Shown here one piece after another: positions 8,605 to 24,481 of a stretch of 32,000 nt of DNA. The first letter of the stretch is position 1. Each line of letters starts with the position of its first letter. This DNA is from Archaeoglobus fulgidus DSM 4304 (GTDB taxonomy: Archaea > Halobacteriota > Archaeoglobi > Archaeoglobales > Archaeoglobaceae). The stretch lies in contig NC_000917.1 in assembly GCF_000008665.1 (NCBI RefSeq), forward strand, positions 780,001 to 812,000. The letters run 5' to 3'. The notes beneath the pieces were generated by a model. That model did no database searches and was not told the DNA's origin. It was given only the letters and a program-made list of their open reading frames with translations. The translations under genes and the position numbers were made by a program.

Positions 8605-8695
8605 GCTCCGGTGGTGTAGCCCGGCCAATCATTCCGGCCTTTCGAGGTTTCGCCGAAGAGAGCCGGCGACCCGGGTTCAAATCCCGGCCGGAGCA
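8605..8695 (+). tRNA. tRNA-Glu (anticodon UUC) with a 16-nt intron at the canonical 37/38 position (about 8645-8660)
   Basis: Acceptor GCTCCGG/CCGGAGC plus discriminator A. T-arm CCGGG-TTCAAAT-CCCGG. Anticodon stem CCGGC/GCCGG is interrupted: CTTTCG | AGGTTTCGCCGAAGAG | A. Removing 16 nt gives a 75-nt canonical tRNA. Confidence 0.85.
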
Positions 8696-11254: not shown

Positions 11255-12760
11255 TTGGAAACTCTGCTCGAAATGAGGAACATAGTTAAGCGATTCGGCA
11301 GCCTTGTTGCCAACGACCACATCAACTTCGAAGTAAAAAGGGGCGAGATTCACGGACTTCTGGGTGAAAACGGAGCGGGTAAAACGACTTTAATGAATAT
11401 TCTCTACGGAATTTACCAGCCGGATGAGGGAGAAATAATCTTCGAGGGTAAAAAGGTGAGATTCAAAAGTCCGAAAGATGCCATCTCAGCCGGTATAGGG
11501 ATGGTCCATCAGCATTTCATGCTTGTTCCGAGGATGAACGTACTTCAAAACATAGTTCTCGGTTATCGCACTCCCTCTGACCCCCTAATAAACCACAGGT
11601 GGGTTGAGGAAAGAATTGAACGTCTCTCCGAAAAGTACGGGATTGACGTGGCGCTTTACGAGGTCATTATGAACTTGAGCGTTGGAGAGGAGCAGAGGGT
11701 CGAAATTTTGAAGGCTCTCTTCCGTGACGTTAAGCTTCTCATCCTCGACGAGCCGACAGCTGTTCTCACACCTCAGGAGGTTGACAGCCTTTTTTACGCT
11801 CTGAAATCCATGACGAAGAGTGGTCTTACAATTATTTTCATAACTCACAAGCTAAAGGAGGCTCTTAAGGTCACGGACAGGATAACCGTCTTGAGAAGAG
11901 GGAGAAAGGTGGGAACTGTCATAACTTCTGAAACAAACGAAAGAGAGCTTACCAGGATGATGGTTGGTCGGGACATAGTGCTTGATATTACAAAACCGCC
12001 TTCAACGCCCGGCAGAGAAGTCCTCAGGGTCGAGGATTTGTGGGTTAGGGACGAAAGGGGAAATTACGCTGTGAAGGGTGTGAGCTTCTCAATAAGAGAG
12101 GGAGAGATTTTTGGGATTGCCGGAGTTTCGGGCAACGGACAGAAAGAGCTCGAAGAGGCTATAGCGGGACTGAGAAAGGTTGAGAGGGGCAGAATCATTC
12201 TTGACGGAAAGGATATAACAGCCAAAGGCGTGGCGGAAAGAGAGGACATAGCATACATACCCGAAGACAGGATAGGCGTCGGGTTGGCACCCTCTCTTTC
12301 CGTTCTGGAAAACCTTATGCTGAAGGACTTTAAAAAGTACAAAAAGCGCTTCTCCCTGAACTTCGAAGAAATGGAAAAGAGAGCGATGAGCCTCGTTGAG
12401 GAATTCTCTGTAAAAACTCCATCTTTGCACTCTCCGGCAGGAACGCTTTCTGGTGGAAATATCCAGAGGCTGATTCTCGCAAGAGAGCTTTCAAGAAATC
12501 CCAGATTGATCATAGCCTCCCAACCAACAAGGGGACTTGACGTTGCCGGCATAGACTACGTGAGAAGGAGGCTTATAGAGGCGGCGATGAGGGGGTCTGC
12601 AGTCCTTCTGATTTCCGAAGATCTGGATGAGATTTTCCAGCTCAGCGACAGAATAGGGGTTATGTACGAGGGTGAGATAAGGGGAATCGTGGACAGGAAA
12701 AATGCCAACTACGAGAAAATTGGTTACCTGATGGCGGGAGGTTTGGAGGTCGCAGCATGA
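11255..12760 (+). CDS. ABC transporter ATP-binding protein, duplicated ATPase (BMP/nucleoside-sugar CUT2 type)
   Basis: Walker A motifs GENGAGKTT and GVSGNGQKE, signatures LSVGEEQRV and LSGGNIQRL. TTG start at 11255 lies 5 nt after GAGGTGAT (11242-11249). The ATG at 11273 is an alternative. Confidence 0.9.
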   Translation: METLLEMRNIVKRFGSLVANDHINFEVKRGEIHGLLGENGAGKTTLMNILYGIYQPDEGEIIFEGKKVRFKSPKDAISAGIGMVHQHFMLVPRMNVLQNIVLGYRTPSDPLINHRWVEERIERLSEKYGIDVALYEVIMNLSVGEEQRVEILKALFRDVKLLILDEPTAVLTPQEVDSLFYALKSMTKSGLTIIFITHKLKEALKVTDRITVLRRGRKVGTVITSETNERELTRMMVGRDIVLDITKPPSTPGREVLRVEDLWVRDERGNYAVKGVSFSIREGEIFGIAGVSGNGQKELEEAIAGLRKVERGRIILDGKDITAKGVAEREDIAYIPEDRIGVGLAPSLSVLENLMLKDFKKYKKRFSLNFEEMEKRAMSLVEEFSVKTPSLHSPAGTLSGGNIQRLILARELSRNPRLIIASQPTRGLDVAGIDYVRRRLIEAAMRGSAVLLISEDLDEIFQLSDRIGVMYEGEIRGIVDRKNANYEKIGYLMAGGLEVAA

Positions 12761-13755
12761 GGGACATAGTAACTCCAGTCATTTCCGTAGCCGCATCCCT
12801 CGTCCTGGTGGGGATTTTACTCGCCGCCATAGGGATAAATCCCCTCGAAGCGTACGCTGTGATGTTCACAAGGTCCTTCACATCCAAATTCGGTCTCGCG
12901 GAGCTGTGCGTGAAAACAACACCTCTGATACTCACCGGCTTGGCGGTGGCAATTCCACTAAGAGCGGGGCTATGGAACATCGGCGCGGAAGGGCAGCTTT
13001 ACATGGGTGCCTTCGCCGCAAGCGTTGTGGCCCTTTACTCCAACCTTCCGGGATACGCGATGCTCCCGGCAATGTTTGCTGTGGGAGCTTTGTTCGGGAT
13101 GGGCTGGGCGGCAATTCCGGCTGTTTTGAAGGCAAAATTCGACCTCAACGAGATAATTTCCACACTCCTTCTTAACTACGTCGCCATATACTGGGTGGAG
13201 TACATGGTTTACGGCCCTATGAGGGGCAAGGAGGTTTACAACTTCCCGTACACAGACCTTTTTCCCGATGCCGCAACACTTCCAAGGTTCTTCGGAACTC
13301 GCTTCCACCTTGGGTTCTTCATTGCTGTCGTCATTGCCTTGGTAATTTACTACATCATCAGGAAGACGGATTTTGGCTTCTCCCTCAAGGTTGTCGGAGC
13401 GAATCCGAGGGCTGCTGAATACGCGGGGATAAGCAGGCAGAAAATGGTAATATACTCCATGCTTCTCGGCGGAATGCTCGCAGGAATAGCGGGGATGATT
13501 GAGGTGAGCGGTATTCAGCTAAGACTGAGGCCCTCAATCTCCACCGGATACGGGTACGCGGGAATTCCCGTTGCTCTTCTCGCTTCCGGAAATCCGCTGC
13601 TCGTCATGCTCTCCGCAGCGCTGTTTGGCTTTCTGTACGTTGGTGGCTCAGCGCTCCAGACCACCTACTCTGTGCCAGTTGCTATAGTCTACGTATTTCA
13701 GTCATTGATAGTTCTGTTCATAATAGGCGGGCAATCGCTAAGGAGGAGGGATTAA
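12757..13755 (+). CDS. ABC transporter permease (BMP/CUT2 type)
   Basis: 332-aa polytopic hydrophobic protein. ATGA overlap with the ATPase gene. Confidence 0.85.
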   Translation: MRDIVTPVISVAASLVLVGILLAAIGINPLEAYAVMFTRSFTSKFGLAELCVKTTPLILTGLAVAIPLRAGLWNIGAEGQLYMGAFAASVVALYSNLPGYAMLPAMFAVGALFGMGWAAIPAVLKAKFDLNEIISTLLLNYVAIYWVEYMVYGPMRGKEVYNFPYTDLFPDAATLPRFFGTRFHLGFFIAVVIALVIYYIIRKTDFGFSLKVVGANPRAAEYAGISRQKMVIYSMLLGGMLAGIAGMIEVSGIQLRLRPSISTGYGYAGIPVALLASGNPLLVMLSAALFGFLYVGGSALQTTYSVPVAIVYVFQSLIVLFIIGGQSLRRRD

Positions 13756-13756
13756 G

Positions 13757-14689
13757 ATGGTGGACCCAAGCTTCTTGGCCTCGCTGCTGGCTTCCTCGAT
13801 TAGGGCCGGTACACCACTGCTTTACGCAACGCTGGGTGAGATTCTTACCGAGAGAAGCGGAATTCTTAACCTCGGACTTGAGGGGATAATGATTACCGGA
13901 GCCTTTACCGGATTTGCCGTAAGCCTCGCGACCGGCAGCCCATGGCTCGGAGTTCTCTGCGGTGGGCTTGCCGGAATGGCTCTCGCCTTCGTGCATGCGT
14001 TCTTTTCCATAACGCTGAGAGCCAACCAGTCCATAACCGGATTGATGCTGGTTCTTCTCGGTCTCGGCATAACGGGATTTCTGGGGAGAAACTACATAGG
14101 GGAAGTTGCGTTCTACATCGATCCAGTAAAGATTCCCGTCTTGTCAGACATTCCTTACATCGGAGAAATTCTTTTCAGTCACGATCCGCTGGCTTATCTC
14201 GCAATAATTCTCGCAGCAATTATGTGGTTCATCCTTTTCAGGACGAGGTACGGTTTGGAGATAATTGCAGCCGGAGAGAAACCGGAGGCTGCTGACAGCA
14301 TGGGTGTTAACGTTGACAGAGTGAGGTACCTGAGCACGCTTTTAGGAGGCTTTCTCGTTGGGATTGGAGGGGCGTATCTCAGCCTCGCCTACGCGAAGCT
14401 GTGGACGGAGGGGATGACCGCAGGAAGGGGATGGATCTGCTTAGCTTTAGTTATCTTCAGCGGATGGATGCCGCAGAGAGCAGTTTTTGGTGCCTACCTC
14501 TTCGGAGGTCTTGACGTGCTGTCCTTCAAGCTCCAGGCGACGGGAATAGAGGTGTCGTACCACCTCATGAAAATGGTCCCCTACGTCGTCACGATAGTAG
14601 TGCTGCTGTTCAGTGTCGTGAGAAAAAGGGCTGCCTTTGGAGCGCCTGCAGCACTTGGAATACCGTATGTCAGGGGGAGGAAAGAGTAA
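13757..14689 (+). CDS. ABC transporter permease (second subunit)
   Basis: 310-aa polytopic hydrophobic protein that starts 1 nt after the previous stop. Confidence 0.85.
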   Translation: MVDPSFLASLLASSIRAGTPLLYATLGEILTERSGILNLGLEGIMITGAFTGFAVSLATGSPWLGVLCGGLAGMALAFVHAFFSITLRANQSITGLMLVLLGLGITGFLGRNYIGEVAFYIDPVKIPVLSDIPYIGEILFSHDPLAYLAIILAAIMWFILFRTRYGLEIIAAGEKPEAADSMGVNVDRVRYLSTLLGGFLVGIGGAYLSLAYAKLWTEGMTAGRGWICLALVIFSGWMPQRAVFGAYLFGGLDVLSFKLQATGIEVSYHLMKMVPYVVTIVVLLFSVVRKRAAFGAPAALGIPYVRGRKE

Positions 14690-17993: not shown

Positions 17994-18033
17994 TATTTAA
18001 TCTTGAATTAAATCCTTAAAATAGTTTGCCATA

Positions 18034-18043
18034 ACCTTTATAA
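18034..18043 (+). promoter_or_regulatory. TATA box for the SRP RNA gene
   Basis: acctttataa lies about 24-30 nt upstream of the RNA 5' end at 18067. Confidence 0.45.
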
Positions 18044-18066
18044 CTCACTGTGACAATACTTTATTT

Positions 18067-18376
18067 GGTGGGCTAGGCCGGGGGGTTCGGCGTCCCCTGT
18101 AACCCGAAACCGCCGATACGCGGGGGCCGAAGCCGAGGGGAGGCCTGTCAAGCGGGCGGCAGCGGTTCCAGGCACCGCAGAGTCCTCGTCCCGGAGGGCC
18201 GGCGGTTATGGCCGGGCTGCCCGGAGGGGCTGTCCGCCATATTAGCCGGGGGGAACGGCCCAGGCCCGGAAGGGAGCAGGCTAACCCCGGACGACCGGCG
18301 CTTCCGGGGGTGCGGGGAGGAGGTGCCTGGGGCTTCAAGCCGCCCGTAAGGCAGGTCGACCCGAGGCGTGCCCACC
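18067..18376 (+). ncRNA. ffs: Signal recognition particle RNA (archaeal 7S RNA), about 310 nt
   Basis: GC-rich block in an otherwise roughly 50% GC context. The 5' GGTGGGC pairs with the 3' GCCCACC. The start GGGCTAGGCCGGGGGGTTCGGCGTCCCCTGTAACC is typical of archaeal SRP RNA. The conserved helix-8 motif AGGCCCGGAAGGGAGCAGGC is present. It ends in TTTT. Confidence 0.9.
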
Positions 18377-18417
18377 TTTTCAGTTAAATTGAAAAATCCT
18401 CCAGCCAATTCTGACCG

Positions 18418-20067
18418 ATGTTCCTGCGCTTCATAGAGGAAGTGATTAAAGCACTGGGTGAATACGGAGACAAGAAATTTCTGAGGGAGAGCGAGCACGC
18501 TGACCTTGCCTCAACGATAGCCTTCAAGCTTGCAAAGGAGAGAAAGAAGAGCCCTAAGGAAATAGCGGACGAGATAGTGGAGAATCTCGAAGTAGAGAGC
18601 GAATACATCGGCAGTGTTGAAAGCGTAAACGGCTACATCAACTTCTTTGCGAGTTACGAGTTTCTTGAGGACACCGTTAACGTAATCCTCGACGAAGACG
18701 AGAATTACGGTCACCTCAACCTAAAAGGAGAGATTCTGATTGAACACACCTCAGCCAACCCCGACGGGCCCCTGCACATAGGTCACATAAGAAACTCCAT
18801 AATAGGGGACACCATAGCGAGAATTTTCGCCAAGGCCGGGTTCGACGTTAAAACGCACTACTACGTAAACGACATGGGAAGGCAGACCGCAATCACCGTT
18901 CTCGGCATTGAAAAGTTTGGCCTCAAGGACAAGAAGCCAGACCACGCGGTTGCTGAGGCCTACATCGAGGCCAATAAGCTGCTCGAAAGCAATCCCGAAC
19001 TTGAGGAGCAGGTGGAAAAATTGATGCTCGCTTACGAGGAGGGAGACGAGAAGACTGTTGAGAAGTTCAGAAGGGCTGTGGAGACGGCTTTAGAGGGTAT
19101 AAAGCAAACTCTGAAGACGATTAACGTCGAGCACGACGAGTTTGTTTGGGAGAGTGAGTTCGTCCGCAACGGTTACGTGGGCAAAGTCCTTGGAATTTTG
19201 GAAGAGAGGGGTCTTGTAAAGAAAAACGGTGCCTGGACTATTGAGCTTGAAGGCTTCGACAAAGAGGTGGTTTTAAGAAGGGAGAACGGAACGACTCTCT
19301 ACATCACCAGAGACCTCGCTTATCACATGTGGAAGAATGAGAATTACGAGAGATTCATAAACGTTCTTGGGGCAGACCACAAGCTTTACGGCGCTCAGCT
19401 GTCGAAAATTCTTGAGCTTCTCGGACTCAAGCCGCCGGAAATAATCTTTTTCGAGTTCGTTTCTCTGCCTGAGGGCAGCATGAGCACGAGGAGGGGCAAG
19501 TTCATCTCCGCCGATGAGCTGATAAGCAAGGTCAGGGATGAAGCGTGGAAGATACTCTCGGAGAGGGATATGGAAGAGGATGAGAAAAGGAAAATTGCCG
19601 ATGCAGTTGCTGTAGGGGCAATAAGGTTCGATTTCATAAAAATCGCCCCGGAGAAGCACATGACCTTCGACTGGAGTAAGGCTCTGGACTTTGAGAGGCA
19701 GACCGCAAGCTACATACAGTACAGCCACGCAAGGGCATGCAGCATTCTCCGAAAGGCCGTTGAAGATGGCATGCCTGAGCTTGAGTTCAAAGGAGAGCTT
19801 TGCACGGCAGGAGAGAGAAAGCTCGTGATGCTTCTCTCGAAAATGCCGTACGTCGTGAAGAGGATTGTTAGCGAGCTTCGTCCCAACGTTTTTGCGGAGT
19901 ACCTGCTGAGCGTGGCGGGAACCTTCAACGACTTCTACCGGGACCATCCCGTTCTGAAAGCGGAGTCAGAGGTTAGAATGCACAGGCTGGCCATAGTTGA
20001 TGCCACAAGAGTCGTGCTTAGAAACGGCCTCGAGCTGCTGGGAATAGAGCCGCTTGAGAGGATGTAA
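18418..20067 (+). CDS. argS: Arginyl-tRNA synthetase
   Basis: 549 aa. Class I HIGH motif PLHIGHIRN, KMSKS-equivalent MSTRRGKFI, and a C-terminal DALR-type anticodon-binding region. Confidence 0.93.
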   Translation: MFLRFIEEVIKALGEYGDKKFLRESEHADLASTIAFKLAKERKKSPKEIADEIVENLEVESEYIGSVESVNGYINFFASYEFLEDTVNVILDEDENYGHLNLKGEILIEHTSANPDGPLHIGHIRNSIIGDTIARIFAKAGFDVKTHYYVNDMGRQTAITVLGIEKFGLKDKKPDHAVAEAYIEANKLLESNPELEEQVEKLMLAYEEGDEKTVEKFRRAVETALEGIKQTLKTINVEHDEFVWESEFVRNGYVGKVLGILEERGLVKKNGAWTIELEGFDKEVVLRRENGTTLYITRDLAYHMWKNENYERFINVLGADHKLYGAQLSKILELLGLKPPEIIFFEFVSLPEGSMSTRRGKFISADELISKVRDEAWKILSERDMEEDEKRKIADAVAVGAIRFDFIKIAPEKHMTFDWSKALDFERQTASYIQYSHARACSILRKAVEDGMPELEFKGELCTAGERKLVMLLSKMPYVVKRIVSELRPNVFAEYLLSVAGTFNDFYRDHPVLKAESEVRMHRLAIVDATRVVLRNGLELLGIEPLERM

Positions 20068-20396
20068 GGGTAATAGTATCCTGAATTATTTCATTACTAA
20101 ACACCCACTTCACGTGAGAAAGCCAAGAACAAGAAAATAAGGTGGATAATCTGACAGCTCAACAAGGGAGCCCAGTAAAGGAGATATCTGCTGATGAAAG
20201 TAACACCAAGAAGCAATATGAGGAATTAGGTAAAATTCAAGACGTTACTGGTACAATTATGTTAAACATCAAATGAGCCTGAATTTTGATGAATGGAGAC
20301 TCCATATCAGGTTTTTCTCAGGAAGCTGAGAGTGTTTGAGTACACAAAGGGTTGGTTGTTTGAGGAGTGAGATTATTTCGGGATATCACATAAATG

Positions 20397-21054
20397 GGAC
20401 ATGTCCCCATTACTAAAACAAACAAGTACCAAAAAATAACACCAAAATATGCAATCAGTAAAGAATATTGTTAAGGAGCTTAAAGTCTTTTCGAAATTAA
20501 AGTTTTGGGAGTAGCAACCTATATCCAGACATCATCGGTGAGAAGAACTGCTAAAATTCTGTCAGAGTTGCATCCGGTTTCCAAATCATGAGTACATCGC
20601 TGGATAAAGAAGTTTGAGGAGAAATTTCCCATCTCAGCGGAGAAAAAAGGAATCTGATAGCGATGGATGAGACAGTGGTTAAGGCGAACAGGAAGCATTA
20701 CTACGTCTATGCTGCGATAGATGTGGAGAGGAATGAGCTTATTCTTATGAGAGTCTATACGACAAGGAATTACCTGACCACAAAGTCCTTTATCAAGGAA
20801 GTGCTTGAGTATTGCGAGAATAAACCAAAATTTGTGGTGGATAAGGCTCCCTGGCTGGTTCAGTTTGGAGAGTCTTGGATTGGAATACGAACACCAAACC
20901 TTTCGGTGAGAGAAGTCTGGTCGAATCAGTTTTCTCTTCGCTGAAGCAGCGAATTAAGATCTTTTTCTGTTCGATTAGCTGCCATAATCTCTGTAAGCTG
21001 TTTATGCTCTATTATAACAGGTATAGGTGGTGTTTGTGTTAAGTGGACACGTCC
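20397..21054 (+). mobile_element. IS6-family-like insertion sequence, inactivated, with 8-bp target-site duplication
   Basis: Imperfect terminal inverted repeats: GGGACATGTCCCCATTA (left) versus the reverse complement of the right end, GGACGTGTCCACTTA. An exact 8-bp direct repeat CATAAATG lies immediately outside both ends (20389-20396 and 21055-21062). An 8-bp TSD is the IS6-family hallmark. Confidence 0.75.
20449..21042 (+). pseudogene. IS6-like DDE transposase pseudogene (at least 3 stops or frameshifts)
   Basis: The central ORF reads DETVVKANRKHYYVYAAIDVERNE ... FVVDKAPW, the IS6 DDE signature. The N-terminal HTH part (RRTAKILSELHPVSKS*VHRWIKKFEE) is broken by stops. The C-terminal part (TFGERSLVESVFSSLKQRIK) is readable only after a 1-nt frameshift. 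Confidence 0.8.
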
Positions 21055-21194
21055 CATAAATGCACAAAAATTTATATCAAGGAAAAAGTAATTCCTGCGT
21101 GGGTTGAGATATAGTTTAGCTACAAACAGAGAATTCGAAAAAAATACTCAAAGAGCTCTTGCCTAGGGTGGAGATAGAACTGACCAACTATCAT

Positions 21195-21206
21195 AAATCT
21201 TATATC
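21195..21206 (+). promoter_or_regulatory. Candidate TATA box for the two-gene cassette
   Basis: aaatcttatatc lies about 35 nt upstream of ATG 21239. The resulting short leader carries a strong SD, GGAGGTG (21224-21230). Confidence 0.35.
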
Positions 21207-21238
21207 TGGGATAGTTAACAAAGAAGGAGGTGGAGATC

Positions 21239-22339
21239 ATGTTCCCCATCAAGCCACCAACAACCGAGCGTTTTGAGTTATCGGCAGAGTTTATAGACTA
21301 CCTAGATAGGGTCATAAAAAGTAAAGAGATGCCGACCTCACTCAAGGCGATTTTCACAATTTCCAATTTTAAGAGCGCTGATGAATTTCTCTATGATCTA
21401 AAGAAATCTGGATTTAAGCTAATATCTGACTACGGATGCGTTTTTTATCTCACAAAAAAATCTGAGTATGGAGATGTAAGATATCTTGCTCTTTTCACTG
21501 AAAATCACAATCCAATCTTTTTCACCTTAGCAACAAAAACAAAAGAGATACCACCGACTTTACTTGAATATTTAAACAAATCCCCCTATATATCTAATTT
21601 ATGGATAAGCTTAACTAAAATGGACGAATTAGTCGAGTCTCTTAAAAAAGAATATTCAGACCAGATTATGGGAACATACTTTACAGGGACGTACAGTCCA
21701 TTTTTCAAAAGAAAAGCGTTAATACGTCCGAACATAGAGAGATTTGTCGAATATAGGGGTGACGATGCAATTCAAATTTATGAGGAATACAAAAAATACT
21801 ATGGAATTCTTCCGAGGGTTTTTGAATTCAATCTGATTGGATACGGAACGTATAGACTAGACTACAGAGGGATTTTAGTTATAAAAGCTAGATCGTCTTT
21901 TAACTTTATTTATCAGCTTATGGATAGTATTGTTTCTGAAGTTGAAAAGTCTAAACAAAAAATTACCAGAGCCCGTGTCTTGGACAAATTCATGAAAACA
22001 AAACGCAAAGAATTCAAAATAAACATCAAAATACCTTGGTCCATAAAGCTAACTGAGCAGCTTGAATGCGTAAAATTTGATGACTTCGTTAAAGTTTTGG
22101 AACCTGAATGGCAATTTTTACCATTAGACATTGATATTAGTGAGAATGCAGAAAATTCAGAATTTTTGGATTTCAGTTATTTTAGAGTTATAGACCTAAT
22201 AAAACCAAGTGAATTCTCTGTTGTTTATAATAACAAAAATCTAAAGATTTACCCTTCTGATAAGTTAGATCTCGGCTCCTCTCTTAGGTTCTTCCAGTCT
22301 GTAAGGTCATCACTCGATCCGAGTGCATACCTAACTTGA
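21239..22339 (+). CDS. Orphan protein (366 aa), no recognisable domain; first gene of the AT-rich cassette
   Basis: Long intact ORF in about 30% GC DNA. The ATG at 21239 lies 8 nt after GGAGGTG, and I consider the track's GTG at 21230 less likely. I found no P-loop, SAM-binding, nuclease or TM motif by eye. Confidence 0.75.
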   Translation: MFPIKPPTTERFELSAEFIDYLDRVIKSKEMPTSLKAIFTISNFKSADEFLYDLKKSGFKLISDYGCVFYLTKKSEYGDVRYLALFTENHNPIFFTLATKTKEIPPTLLEYLNKSPYISNLWISLTKMDELVESLKKEYSDQIMGTYFTGTYSPFFKRKALIRPNIERFVEYRGDDAIQIYEEYKKYYGILPRVFEFNLIGYGTYRLDYRGILVIKARSSFNFIYQLMDSIVSEVEKSKQKITRARVLDKFMKTKRKEFKINIKIPWSIKLTEQLECVKFDDFVKVLEPEWQFLPLDIDISENAENSEFLDFSYFRVIDLIKPSEFSVVYNNKNLKIYPSDKLDLGSSLRFFQSVRSSLDPSAYLT

Positions 22340-22345
22340 TCGAAG

Positions 22346-23443
22346 ATGGCGAAATATGATAGAGATTGGTTCGCCAATAGTATTAAAAAAATAGCGGAAA
22401 AGAAGTTAGAAGAAGCTAGAAGACATGTAGAAGTGCAGCTTGATTCCGCAATAACTTTAGATAAACGCCATTGTTCGCTTGTTAGACATTGTAAATCTCT
22501 TTTGATTAACTTATATGAAAACACTCCCATAGGGTATGACATTATTATGCGTGAGCCGTTGATTGACCTATCTCTGAAAAAGAATGATATTTCTGTTTTC
22601 GATCTGGTAGCAATAAATTCCACAAACGGAATAGCTTCACTAATCGAATGTAAAACTGGCCATAATTCAAAATACATGTTGAAGAGTTTTGCTAAAAAGA
22701 TTGTGTCATTCAATGAACACTGCAGCCACATTGAAAAAATGTTAGGGATAAATATTAAAGACTCTGAATTTATTTTGTGCGTGGAATCGATTAATACTGG
22801 AGGAGTTTTGCAGTCTGTAAACGACCACACCAATAAAAAGCGAAGAGGACAAAGTTCAGCATTCAATGAATTAAGTGAGGACAAAATTAACAGGATAATA
22901 ATTTGGTCTGTTCTTGAAGGCGAAAACAAAATAGTTAAAGTGTATGGCAATCACCTTGACACAAATTTCGATAGGATCATGAGAGGTCCTCCCCTATTTG
23001 ATTACCTCTCGGATTTGGATTTAGAATATTGTTCACAACCGTGGAGGTTCATTGAAAGAGTAATTTACGAAAGAATTTTTGTAGAAAAGAAGAGATTAGA
23101 TGAAGCGAATCCTAAGGAATTTACTTACATCGAAGTCGTAAATGCGCTTGTTGATGAATTTAGTGACTTAGCTGTGGATAATTTAACATTGCGATCTATA
23201 GCCGAACAAAAAGCATCAGAAATAATAAACCATGGTATCGAATATGGGATATTTGAAGAAGTAAAGAAAAATAGATATTGCATAAAATGTAGAGGTGAGC
23301 GAATAAGCACAGTTAGAGAGAATTTAGAAAGAAAATACAGAAATAACTACATAAACAAAGAAGCCGAGAGGAAAGCTTACGAAGAAGCTAAAAAAGAAGT
23401 TAAAAGAATGCATGGAGACTTATCTAAGTTTGGCATTACTTAG
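22346..23443 (+). CDS. PD-(D/E)xK nuclease-fold protein with a probable C-terminal winged-helix region (365 aa)
   Basis: Starts 6 nt after the upstream stop. Its core reads GYDIIMRE(70) - VFD(86)LVAINSTNGIASLIE(101)CK(103)TG, the same pattern as Hjc-type resolvases and restriction endonucleases (xDLVA...hhIExK). An oligo-T run (gcattttt) follows the stop. Confidence 0.75.
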   Translation: MAKYDRDWFANSIKKIAEKKLEEARRHVEVQLDSAITLDKRHCSLVRHCKSLLINLYENTPIGYDIIMREPLIDLSLKKNDISVFDLVAINSTNGIASLIECKTGHNSKYMLKSFAKKIVSFNEHCSHIEKMLGINIKDSEFILCVESINTGGVLQSVNDHTNKKRRGQSSAFNELSEDKINRIIIWSVLEGENKIVKVYGNHLDTNFDRIMRGPPLFDYLSDLDLEYCSQPWRFIERVIYERIFVEKKRLDEANPKEFTYIEVVNALVDEFSDLAVDNLTLRSIAEQKASEIINHGIEYGIFEEVKKNRYCIKCRGERISTVRENLERKYRNNYINKEAERKAYEEAKKEVKRMHGDLSKFGIT

Positions 23444-23539
23444 CATTTTTCTCCTAACTTCAATGCTAAGTTCCTAACATCAATTCTTCAGATATTTATT
23501 TAAAAATAATTGTATTAAAACTTCTTTCCATCTTGATAC

Positions 23540-24400
23540 CAGTTCTTCAGAACTTCCACGTGAGCTTTGGCTTTTCCGCTTCGAACTTCGATTCGGGGAA
23601 GGGGAAGTATGTCTGCTCCATTGTTATGCTATTGAAACCTGTTATTCATCCTTAGTAGAAATCACACAGCTCTATTTGACGAAGCCCATCAGTGGAGCGT
23701 TGTTTTTGCTTGACGCGAGCAGTGTAACCTCTCCCCGTTATCCTATGTTATCGAAACCGCAACAGTTCTCTTCGTCCAGTCTTTTGACGGGTTTGACATT
23801 TTCAGAGTCTTTAGGTGTGAACCCCACATCCATCGACCTCAGAACCATCAACGAAGATTGCAACATCTCTAATCCTCAATTCAACTGCTCCTTCAGCCAT
23901 TTAACCGCCTCTACAAGACGATAACCAGATCCAGCACGATTTTGCTGAGCACTACGCTTAGATAGGTTGCTACCCTGCATTTCTCAGAATTCTTGCTGAC
24001 TTATCGGAGGCCTTATATCATCGTAGTTCGGAGCCTGCACCTCGTAATATCTTACCAGATTTCCATCCGCGTCAACATAACCCTCCTCATAGCTCCGAGG
24101 CTCTGTGCAACTCTGCAAACCCTCCTCGATTACGGCCTTGATCATGTTCAGACCCTGAGGTTATAAGGGGGTCTTCTGGCCTGCATGTTGGCAAGGCGGA
24201 GCTTCAGGTTGATCAGAGCGTTTTTGATCTCAGTTGCAAGATGTGTCTTCGTCCTCAGGGTGTCGACCCAGCTGCCGTCAAGACTCTTTTGTAGTTGAGA
24301 TTGCAGCCTTCCCCATCTCTCCCATGATTTGATTTGAGCTTATCGTGTTTTCCCACCTTGAACCATCTTCCTAATCTTGCTTTCCTTTAATTTTTCATAA
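23540..24400 (-). pseudogene. Unidentified broken reading frames (decayed gene or genes, or several very small ORFs)
   Basis: The minus strand gives protein-like fragments in shifting frames. Examples are ...AQIKSWERWGRLQSQLQKSLDGSWVDTLRTKTHLATEIKNALINLKLRLANMQARRPPYNLRV*, a 53-aa ORF at 24145-23984 (MIKAVIEEGLQSCTEPRSYEEGYVDADGNLVRYYEVQAPNYDDIRPPISQQEF), and MQGSNLSKRSAQQNRAGSGYRLVEAVKWLKEQLN*. No intact ORF over 60 aa exists on this strand. Confidence 0.35.
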
Positions 24401-24481
24401 TTTTCTTATTACCTTTACCGATTCCTAACCTTTACCAAACCCAATCAGGAAATTTTTAACCAGCAGTCACGAGGAAAAGAT

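Follow-up and report, generated by a model that had tools for sequence, protein, structure and literature searches.

A two-gene cassette of Archaeoglobus fulgidus joining an RdgC-like fold to a predicted PD-(D/E)xK/winged-helix nuclease: a candidate archaeal defence operon

The cassette and its surroundings in A. fulgidus

The window analysed here, a stretch of 32,000 nucleotides of the Archaeoglobus fulgidus DSM 4304 genome, carries a compact cassette composed of AF_0896 and its downstream neighbour, hereafter gene 1 and gene 2, whose products are called protein 1 and protein 2. The cassette holds these two genes only, and a spacer of 6 nt (TCGAAG) separates them. The original prediction, made from the sequence alone, had described two intact open reading frames (ORFs) of about 1.1 kb, 6 nt apart and preceded by a strong Shine-Dalgarno (SD) sequence, and this description is confirmed (Table 1). 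The SD motif is complementary to the 3' end of the archaeal 16S RNA and a TATA-like candidate promoter element is visible upstream of it; an alternative GTG start of gene 1 is found at 21230. A hairpin with a T5 run, read at the end of gene 2, is a possible operon terminator. No RNA was found in an Rfam scan of the cassette.

Both genes appear well preserved. Indeed, at the local composition the chance of a stop is 0.079 per codon, i.e. one stop is expected every 12-13 codons, and an open run of 366 codons would arise by chance with a probability of only ~7e-14. Comparison with relatives revealed purifying selection on both genes. Synonymous sites are saturated in these comparisons; wherever an estimate of dS was obtained, the ratio of nonsynonymous to synonymous substitution rates (dN/dS) is 0.06-0.12 in gene 1 and 0.14-0.20 in gene 2. 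The evolution of gene 2 is roughly twice as rapid (dN of 0.21 vs 0.11 in gene 1).

The composition of the cassette differs strongly from that of the surrounding chromosome, as had been noted from the sequence. The GC content is 0.32-0.37 over 21001-23500 vs ~0.45-0.52 around, and the GC content at third codon positions reaches only 0.335 in gene 1 and 0.317 in gene 2 vs 0.60-0.64 in argS, the tatD-like gene and endA. A spike of GC content to 0.60 at 18001-18500 is caused by the gene of the signal recognition particle (SRP) RNA located there. The housekeeping flanks and the neighbouring insertion sequence (IS) that had been proposed were both identified. The former comprise the SRP RNA, the arginyl-tRNA synthetase, a TatD-like protein and the tRNA-splicing endonuclease. 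The latter is a remnant of the IS6/IS240 family, with a DDE_Tnp_IS240 match (E-value, E, of 3.2e-9) on the ORF 20663-20944 and imperfect inverted repeats of 17 nt at 20390-20406 and 21045-21061; its transposase is broken and left as ORFs of 93 and 55 amino acids (aa). Two further zones, of ~1 kb after the cassette (23444-24481) and of ~0.3 kb flanking the IS (20068-20390), contain no ORF longer than 82 aa; no Pfam match was obtained for the former and no family match for the latter. The first of them is compatible with gene decay, and both zones may be what is left of the element by which the cassette arrived. No attachment (att)-like repeats, flanking tRNA or integrase were found around the cassette. 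According to tblastn, only the cassette itself is shared between the window and its relatives, while the flanks are not, in line with the expectation that its context is not conserved.

Such surroundings could also be explained if the cassette were an inert remnant, the last piece of a degraded integrated element with no current function in A. fulgidus. The broken IS and the ~1 kb without recognisable genes on its two sides would fit this explanation, as would the missing integrase and att site. On the other hand, both ORFs remain intact despite the local stop chance, the SD sequence and the operon junction are preserved, the residues of the predicted active site of protein 2 (see below) are intact, and purifying selection is seen across the relatives. 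An inert remnant is, in our opinion, highly improbable.

Table 1. Features of the cassette and of its surroundings, in window coordinates.
Feature	Position	Strand	Details
Gene 1 (AF_0896 family)	21239..22339	+	366 aa, ATG start, intact ORF
Gene 2	22346..23443	+	365 aa, intact ORF, same strand as gene 1
Middle domain of gene 1, residues 125-243	21611..21967	+	most conserved part of the family
Predicted active-site codons of gene 2	22553..22768	+	E70 22553-22555, D86 22601-22603, E101 22646-22648, K103 22652-22654, E141 22766-22768
Winged-helix-like domain of gene 2, residues ~232-313	23039..23284	+	predicted from model secondary structure and Foldseek
Candidate expression signals	21199..21232	+	read directly from the sequence
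A/T-rich TATA-like CTTATATC, candidate promoter element	21199-21206	+	visible in the sequence
Shine-Dalgarno GGAGGTG	21226-21232	+	6 nt before the ATG of gene 1
Hairpin TTAGCATT / AATGCTAA with T5 run, possible terminator	23440..23469	+	read from the sequence, directly after the stop codon
IS6/IS240-family insertion sequence remnant	20390..21061		~672 bp, directly upstream of the cassette
Archaeal SRP RNA	18066-18377	+	Rfam RF01857, 216 bits; directly upstream of argS

Predicted folds of the two proteins and the active site across the family

Protein 1 had been taken for an orphan, which proved to be incorrect. Its sequence is that of a hypothetical protein of A. fulgidus (100% identity) assigned to the Pfam family PF27341 (AF_0896_M), an annotation precomputed on this identical protein and on homologs, and it also matches phrog_24372 (E 2.2e-33, residues 11-361). 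Both are catalogued families without an assigned function. An exhaustive HMMER search showed that the family comprises 142 clusters at 50% identity, mostly of ~360 aa. The most conserved zone is the middle domain, which is basic (isoelectric point 9.2) and carries the motif RPxxxRxIxYxGxDGxxTLxExxxxYGVLP. Among 77 homologs, residues Y172 and G189 are invariant, and F148, R163, R168, D176, E183, Y188, P192 and G211 are conserved in at least 90%. Scans of these 77 homologs with Pfam and PADLOC found no family common to more than two members.

The AlphaFold2 (AF2) model of protein 1, based on an alignment with the 77 homologs, is confident, with a predicted local distance difference test (pLDDT) score of 95.3 and a predicted template modelling (TM) score, pTM, of 0.92. 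It is composed of three tandem alpha/beta domains (residues ~11-120, 125-243 and 246-358). In Foldseek searches, the significant matches were Iml3 (E 4.9e-4) and E. coli RdgC (2owl; probability 1.0, E 7.5e-4, 300 columns), followed by the N-terminal domains of RnlA and by the TATA-binding protein (TBP). A similar picture was obtained with BFVD, where phage entries named 'recombination-associated protein RdgC' (E 7e-4 to 9e-3), TBPs and the N-domains of RnlA/LsoA were retrieved. The TM score to RdgC is only 0.28-0.32, and therefore the domain arrangement differs. At the sequence level, neither protein 1 nor the 77 homologs matched RdgC (PF04381) at E <= 0.1, and searches of the PDB with single proteins and profiles found no match. 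Thus, as judged from the model, the likeness of protein 1 to RdgC is one of fold class and not of family membership. According to the structural study of RexA, which acts as the sensor in a prophage exclusion system, RdgC, RexA and Iml3/Chl4 share one non-specific DNA-binding scaffold that dimerises via an extended sheet (PMC11077077). On the basis of its modelled fold, protein 1 is predicted to be a DNA-binding partner or sensor.

The AF2 model of protein 2 (alignment of 18 sequences, pLDDT 84.1, pTM 0.76) comprises, in order, a long N-terminal helix (residues 6-59), a PD-(D/E)xK core, a winged helix and a long C-terminal helix. In this model the core consists of strands 64-69, 87-91 and 96-103, helix 108-133 and strand 139-147, i.e. 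the order alpha-beta-beta-beta-alpha-beta that serves as a criterion of the PD-(D/E)xK superfamily, with D86 just before beta2 and E101-C-K103 within beta3. The winged helix that had been suggested for the downstream protein is supported both by the secondary structure of the model and by a Foldseek match to the E2F-DP winged helix (probability 0.98, TM(target) 0.64). It contains the motif NPKEF, and most homologs retain P256, K257, E258 and F259. The other Foldseek matches of protein 2 are weak, but their list is dominated by PD-(D/E)xK enzymes, including bunyavirus cap-snatching endonucleases, the R2 restriction-like endonuclease, Avs3, LmuA, DpnI, SdaI, Shedu and GajA. For Upx, a dual PD-(D/E)xK defence nuclease (PMC13099982), the probability is 0.98, with 23% identity over 122 columns. 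Furthermore, two protein 2 homologs gave sub-threshold matches to HSDR_N_2 (E 0.017) and NOV_C (E 0.09) exactly over the motif region. As was expected, a motif scan detected neither Walker A nor methyltransferase (DPPY/NPPY) motifs in either protein; no transmembrane segment was found in either of them, the KD19 maximum of protein 2 being 1.39. Matches to Cas11b (E 0.0037) and DpdG (E 0.14) were rejected as chance, since they are single, short and not common to the homologs. Protein 2 is thus predicted from its model to be a PD-(D/E)xK endonuclease with a winged-helix DNA-binding domain, and to be the effector of the pair.

This architecture is also the basis of a special case of defence, in which protein 2 would act as a type IV-like restriction enzyme, reading modified invader DNA via its winged helix as do DpnI and Mrr-type enzymes, with protein 1 as an accessory. 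The association of a nuclease with a winged helix without any methyltransferase fits this mode of action, DpnI and SdaI are among the weak structural matches, and the twofold faster evolution of protein 2 is what specificity modules often display. However, neither DpnI nor SdaI is matched significantly (E 0.35-0.95), and a large, strictly conserved partner is not accounted for. We consider type IV-like restriction improbable.

To evaluate the predicted active site across the family, protein 2 partners were compared from 10 loci outside Halobacteria, namely four of Archaeoglobi together with L007, L009 and L013-L016, with identities down to ~20%, and from 16 loci of Halobacteria (L005, L011, L017 and P0010-P0022). 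In the first group, E70, D86, E101, K103 and E141 are all identical in 8 of the 10 proteins, and the five positions are exact or conservative in 10/10. D86 and K103 are present in every one of them; E70 and E101 are each E in 9/10 and replaced by D in L015, and E141 is E in 9/10 and replaced by Q in L016. The latter, from a Nanohaloarchaeon, keeps D...ExK. In Halobacteria, E101 (to S, A, T or F) and K103 (to E, R, G, N, T or Q) are both replaced in 16/16, position 70 is N, D or S and never E, position 86 stays acidic (D or E), and Q occupies position 141 in 15/16, only L017 keeping E. This joint loss provides evidence that these residues constitute one functional site. It also means that nuclease activity would not be universal in the family, because E-x-K is lost throughout Halobacteria. 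The catalytic signature D86/E101/K103 that had been proposed is therefore supported for the branch of A. fulgidus (10/10) and not for the whole family.

Pairing, distribution and genomic neighbourhoods of the homologs

Close relatives of the cassette, with 46-79% identity, are found on three other archaeal contigs, always as an adjacent pair with the same 6-nt spacer. At every examined locus with a readable downstream region, including much more distant ones, what comes after the gene 1 homolog is either a gene 2 homolog or an ORF of comparable length on the same strand. These downstream partners are of 352-386 aa and the spacers vary from -8 to +98 nt; homology of the partners to gene 2 was established by BLASTP to the pleolipovirus partner, by hhalign (probability of 96% to the most distant one tested) and by joint alignments. 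The expected co-occurrence of the homologs as an adjacent pair was thus seen at all the loci covered. The pairwise identities of the two proteins are strongly correlated over 13 loci (Mantel r of 0.95), and the correlation persists after removal of close relatives (r of 0.78, with 0/5000 permutations as high). The two genes are inherited and diverge together. In one Logan assembly (L004 1199-2295), the protein 2 homolog is split into ORFs of 157 and 177 aa, which represents either a frameshifted pseudogene or an assembly error.

All members of the protein 1 family with an organism name are archaeal, from Haloferax, Nanohaloarchaea, Thermoplasmata and unclassified Euryarchaeota. A tblastn search of 72,556 mostly bacterial plasmids gave matches in plasmids of Halobacteria only, and a scan of genome contigs retrieved only the metagenome-assembled genome of Ca. 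Mnemosynella. No locus was found in IMG/VR scans, and the broad alignments were too diverse for pattern scans. The pair is present in 1 of 50,697 virus records, and because this is the only such record, it is to be regarded as accessory cargo and not as a core virus function.

Several carriers are viruses or other mobile elements. In Ca. Mnemosynella biddleae (L001/L006), the pair is contained in a fusellovirus-like provirus of 14.9 kb, integrated in tRNA-Glu, which is bounded by 250-nt repeats of 99% identity, one of them overlapping the tRNA, and which carries an SSV-type integrase and a fusellovirus VP2-like gene. In the Haloarcula pleolipovirus Harhisp1 (L005), an active provirus (PMC7911831), it is located between RelE/CopG and an Orc1-type replication (rep) gene. 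A pleolipovirus-like provirus of Haloferax denitrificans (L017) carries it near HicA, and in a Nanohaloarchaeon (L016) it belongs to a tRNA-Thr element together with an integrase, DUF5906 and an MmeI-like restriction-modification (R-M) enzyme. Haloarchaeal megaplasmids (L018, L019) carry it as well.

Some of these carriers hold further genes close to the pair. In L001, an ABC-type ATPase of 469 aa adjoins it (12249-14148, minus strand; HEC-01A/OLD/AriA models, E 3.6e-34) and is overlapped by an ORF of 179 aa for which no match was obtained; these two genes are a candidate second defence cargo of the provirus. A pentapeptide-repeat protein is encoded near the pair both in Harhisp1 (L005 11924-13240) and in a plasmid of Haloarcula sp. 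JP-L23 (L018 5408-6874), and may be a third linked gene of the haloarchaeal branch. The A. fulgidus window also contains, at 8605-8695 (+), a tRNA of 91 nt, probably intron-containing, for which ARAGORN gave no anticodon. Since it matches the 250-nt att repeats of the Ca. Mnemosynella provirus (L001 2368-2617 and 17252-17501), an element integrated in tRNA-Glu(TTC), the same tRNA is the integration target of that element.

Other loci place the pair among defence genes. It directly follows an Hma system in L013 (HmaB 1.5e-121, HmaC 4e-146) and adjoins an integrase fragment and a type III R-M system in L007/L008 (methyltransferase E 6e-111), a PLD/DrmC-like protein in L012 and VapBC in L011; in L014, PDC-S32 (1.6e-91) is found at 7 kb. 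Elsewhere, it is flanked by the genes of an aminoacyl-tRNA synthetase and of a ribosomal protein, far from any mobile gene (L009/L010), or lies among metabolic genes (L015). Over the loci with readable flanks, most have defence, toxin-antitoxin (TA) or mobile-element genes within ~8 kb. A housekeeping role was rejected, given the absence of a conserved context, the foreign composition and the patchy distribution; in agreement with the initial view, no housekeeping assignment was obtained for either protein.

The proximity of TA genes and the tight coupling of the two genes, with 6-nt or overlapping junctions, would also suit an addiction module, in which a nuclease toxin would be restrained by protein 1 and post-segregational killing would stabilise the carrier elements. 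The presence of the pair on plasmids and proviruses, beside RelE/CopG, VapBC and HicA, and its survival as an isolated cassette in A. fulgidus are consistent with such a role. It is however difficult to reconcile with the properties of the proteins themselves. Both are of ~365 aa and structurally elaborate, unlike typical antitoxins, and protein 1 is the more conserved of the two, which is the reverse of what is expected for an antitoxin with fast turnover. Moreover, Halobacteria keep the pair though the site of the toxin is lost. Addiction therefore seems unlikely.

A further candidate function lies in the DNA metabolism of the carriers, by which the pair would serve as an accessory of recombination, replication restart, genome resolution or integration, like the phage pairs of an exonuclease and a recombination-associated protein. 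Among viral structures, protein 1 is best matched by phage RdgC entries, the Harhisp1 pair immediately precedes the co-oriented Orc1-type rep gene, and many carriers are proviruses, integrative elements or plasmids. On the other hand, the pair also occurs as an isolated cassette without other element genes and in chromosomal defence islands beside Hma and R-M systems. None of the other pleolipoviruses and fuselloviruses among the virus records searched has it, so it does not belong to core replication, and the fusion of a nuclease with a winged helix is typical of restriction-type enzymes. This explanation deserves consideration but is, on balance, somewhat unlikely.

A possible sensor-effector system and its relation to known defence modules

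Among the closest known systems is RexA/RexB of phage lambda. Like the pair, it is a two-gene module borne by viruses or proviruses, and the top structural matches of protein 1, RdgC and Iml3, belong to the class in which RexA has been placed (PMC11077077). They differ in that RexB is a membrane channel, whereas the partner of protein 1 is a soluble PD-(D/E)xK/winged-helix protein without a transmembrane segment; furthermore, RexA has two domains and protein 1 has three, over 366 aa, and no sequence similarity between them was detected. RdgC and phage RdgC-like proteins appear to share the fold class of protein 1; unlike the latter, RdgC is a stand-alone bacterial housekeeping gene that is not paired with a nuclease, and none of the 77 family members has a Pfam RdgC match. 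A link between KwaB and RdgC found no support in the literature searched and was dropped.

Regarding protein 2, its predicted union of a PD-(D/E)xK core and a winged helix, without an encoded methyltransferase, is reminiscent of DpnI, SdaI and Mrr-type type IV enzymes. Nevertheless, the structural matches are weak and no REBASE-type PADLOC or Pfam match was obtained, and protein 2 differs by its long N- and C-terminal helices and by an obligatory partner gene. With Hachiman HamAB, Gabija, Septu, Lamassu, Shedu and Upx, the pair has in common the location in defence islands or mobile elements and, as predicted, an effector of PD-(D/E)xK type; unlike these systems, it has no ATPase or helicase partner and no Walker A motif, and an RdgC-fold protein is present instead. 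PADLOC 2.0 gave no relevant match for either protein or for the 77 protein 1 homologs. An R-M system was rejected, since there are two genes only, without a methyltransferase family match or a DPPY/NPPY motif, as was an ATPase-nuclease system, whose defining partner is absent. The original prediction, which had set the pair apart from both kinds of system, is upheld on this point. Literature searches for AF0896/AF0897/PF27341 or for the pair returned no paper, only unrelated accession-number matches. A nuclease with an accessory protein, borne by defence islands or mobile elements, is an already known kind of system; an archaea-restricted module in which a PD-(D/E)xK/winged-helix effector has a partner of RdgC fold appears to be undescribed.

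We favour, with a probability of roughly one half, the interpretation that the cassette is a horizontally acquired, archaea-restricted two-gene operon, most likely acting in DNA-targeting immunity or superinfection exclusion. In such a mechanism, protein 1 would bind invader DNA or intermediates of replication or recombination, as a clamp-like sensor or regulator, and would then recruit or license protein 2, which would cut DNA. Viruses, integrative elements and plasmids of archaea would transport the cassette itself as cargo, and it would land in defence islands. The part assigned to protein 1 is suggested by analogy with two proteins. RdgC clamps DNA. RexA senses DNA-protein intermediates of the phage. 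The computations show the integrity of the genes, their selection and foreign composition, the strict pairing and co-divergence, the modelled folds, the active-site pattern and the neighbourhoods with mobile-element and defence genes. We infer that protein 1 would bind DNA and form a complex with protein 2, that protein 2 would be an active nuclease, and that the pair would confer an antiviral phenotype. As for the nuclease-based defence or addiction module that had been proposed, the strict pairing and the mobile and defence contexts are in its favour; defence is assigned by association, and addiction is retained as a rival.

A number of observations weigh against this interpretation. First, the assignment to defence is guilt by association over ~20 loci and not a genome-wide enrichment, and at two loci, those of A. 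fulgidus and BMS3Bbin16, nothing recognisable as a defence or mobile-element gene lies close by apart from an IS remnant. The placement of the Harhisp1 pair next to the rep gene points in another direction as well. Second, the structural assignments have their weak sides: the TM score of protein 1 to RdgC is low, RexA is not among its top 50 Foldseek matches, Foldseek against the PDB gave no nuclease match of protein 2 below E 0.02, and our scans with Pfam, NCBIfam and PADLOC returned nothing significant for either protein. Finally, E101, K103 and mostly E141 are gone from the Halobacteria branch although the pair is retained there, which misfits a simple 'nuclease defence' for the whole family. 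Judging from these sequences, either this branch would work without the predicted active site or it would do something else. It could act by DNA binding alone; otherwise, the core function of the family could be one that needs no cleavage.

A more specific version of the defence interpretation can be put forward tentatively. The pair would be an archaea-specific immune system in which an RdgC/RexA-fold clamp senses invading or replicating DNA and controls a PD-(D/E)xK/winged-helix effector. Fuselloviruses, pleolipoviruses, integrative elements and megaplasmids would disseminate it as cargo for superinfection exclusion. In this system, the Halobacteria branch may protect by DNA binding or occlusion and not by cleavage.

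Archaeal immunity beyond CRISPR and R-M systems is poorly charted. The pair described here, apparently restricted to Archaea, is found in at least four archaeal lineages, both in thermophiles and in halophiles, and its carriers include plasmids as well as viruses of two unrelated families. In it, a predicted restriction-type nuclease is coupled with a fold that had been known until now from RdgC, from the kinetochore proteins Iml3/Chl4 and, according to the literature, from RexA. Experimental tests are feasible, given that members are present in the active provirus Harhisp1 and in relatives of Haloferax and Haloarcula hosts amenable to genetics. If the role in defence is true, the pair would represent a new sensor-effector combination and, furthermore, would constitute a natural experiment, with active-site-intact and active-site-lost branches in one family.

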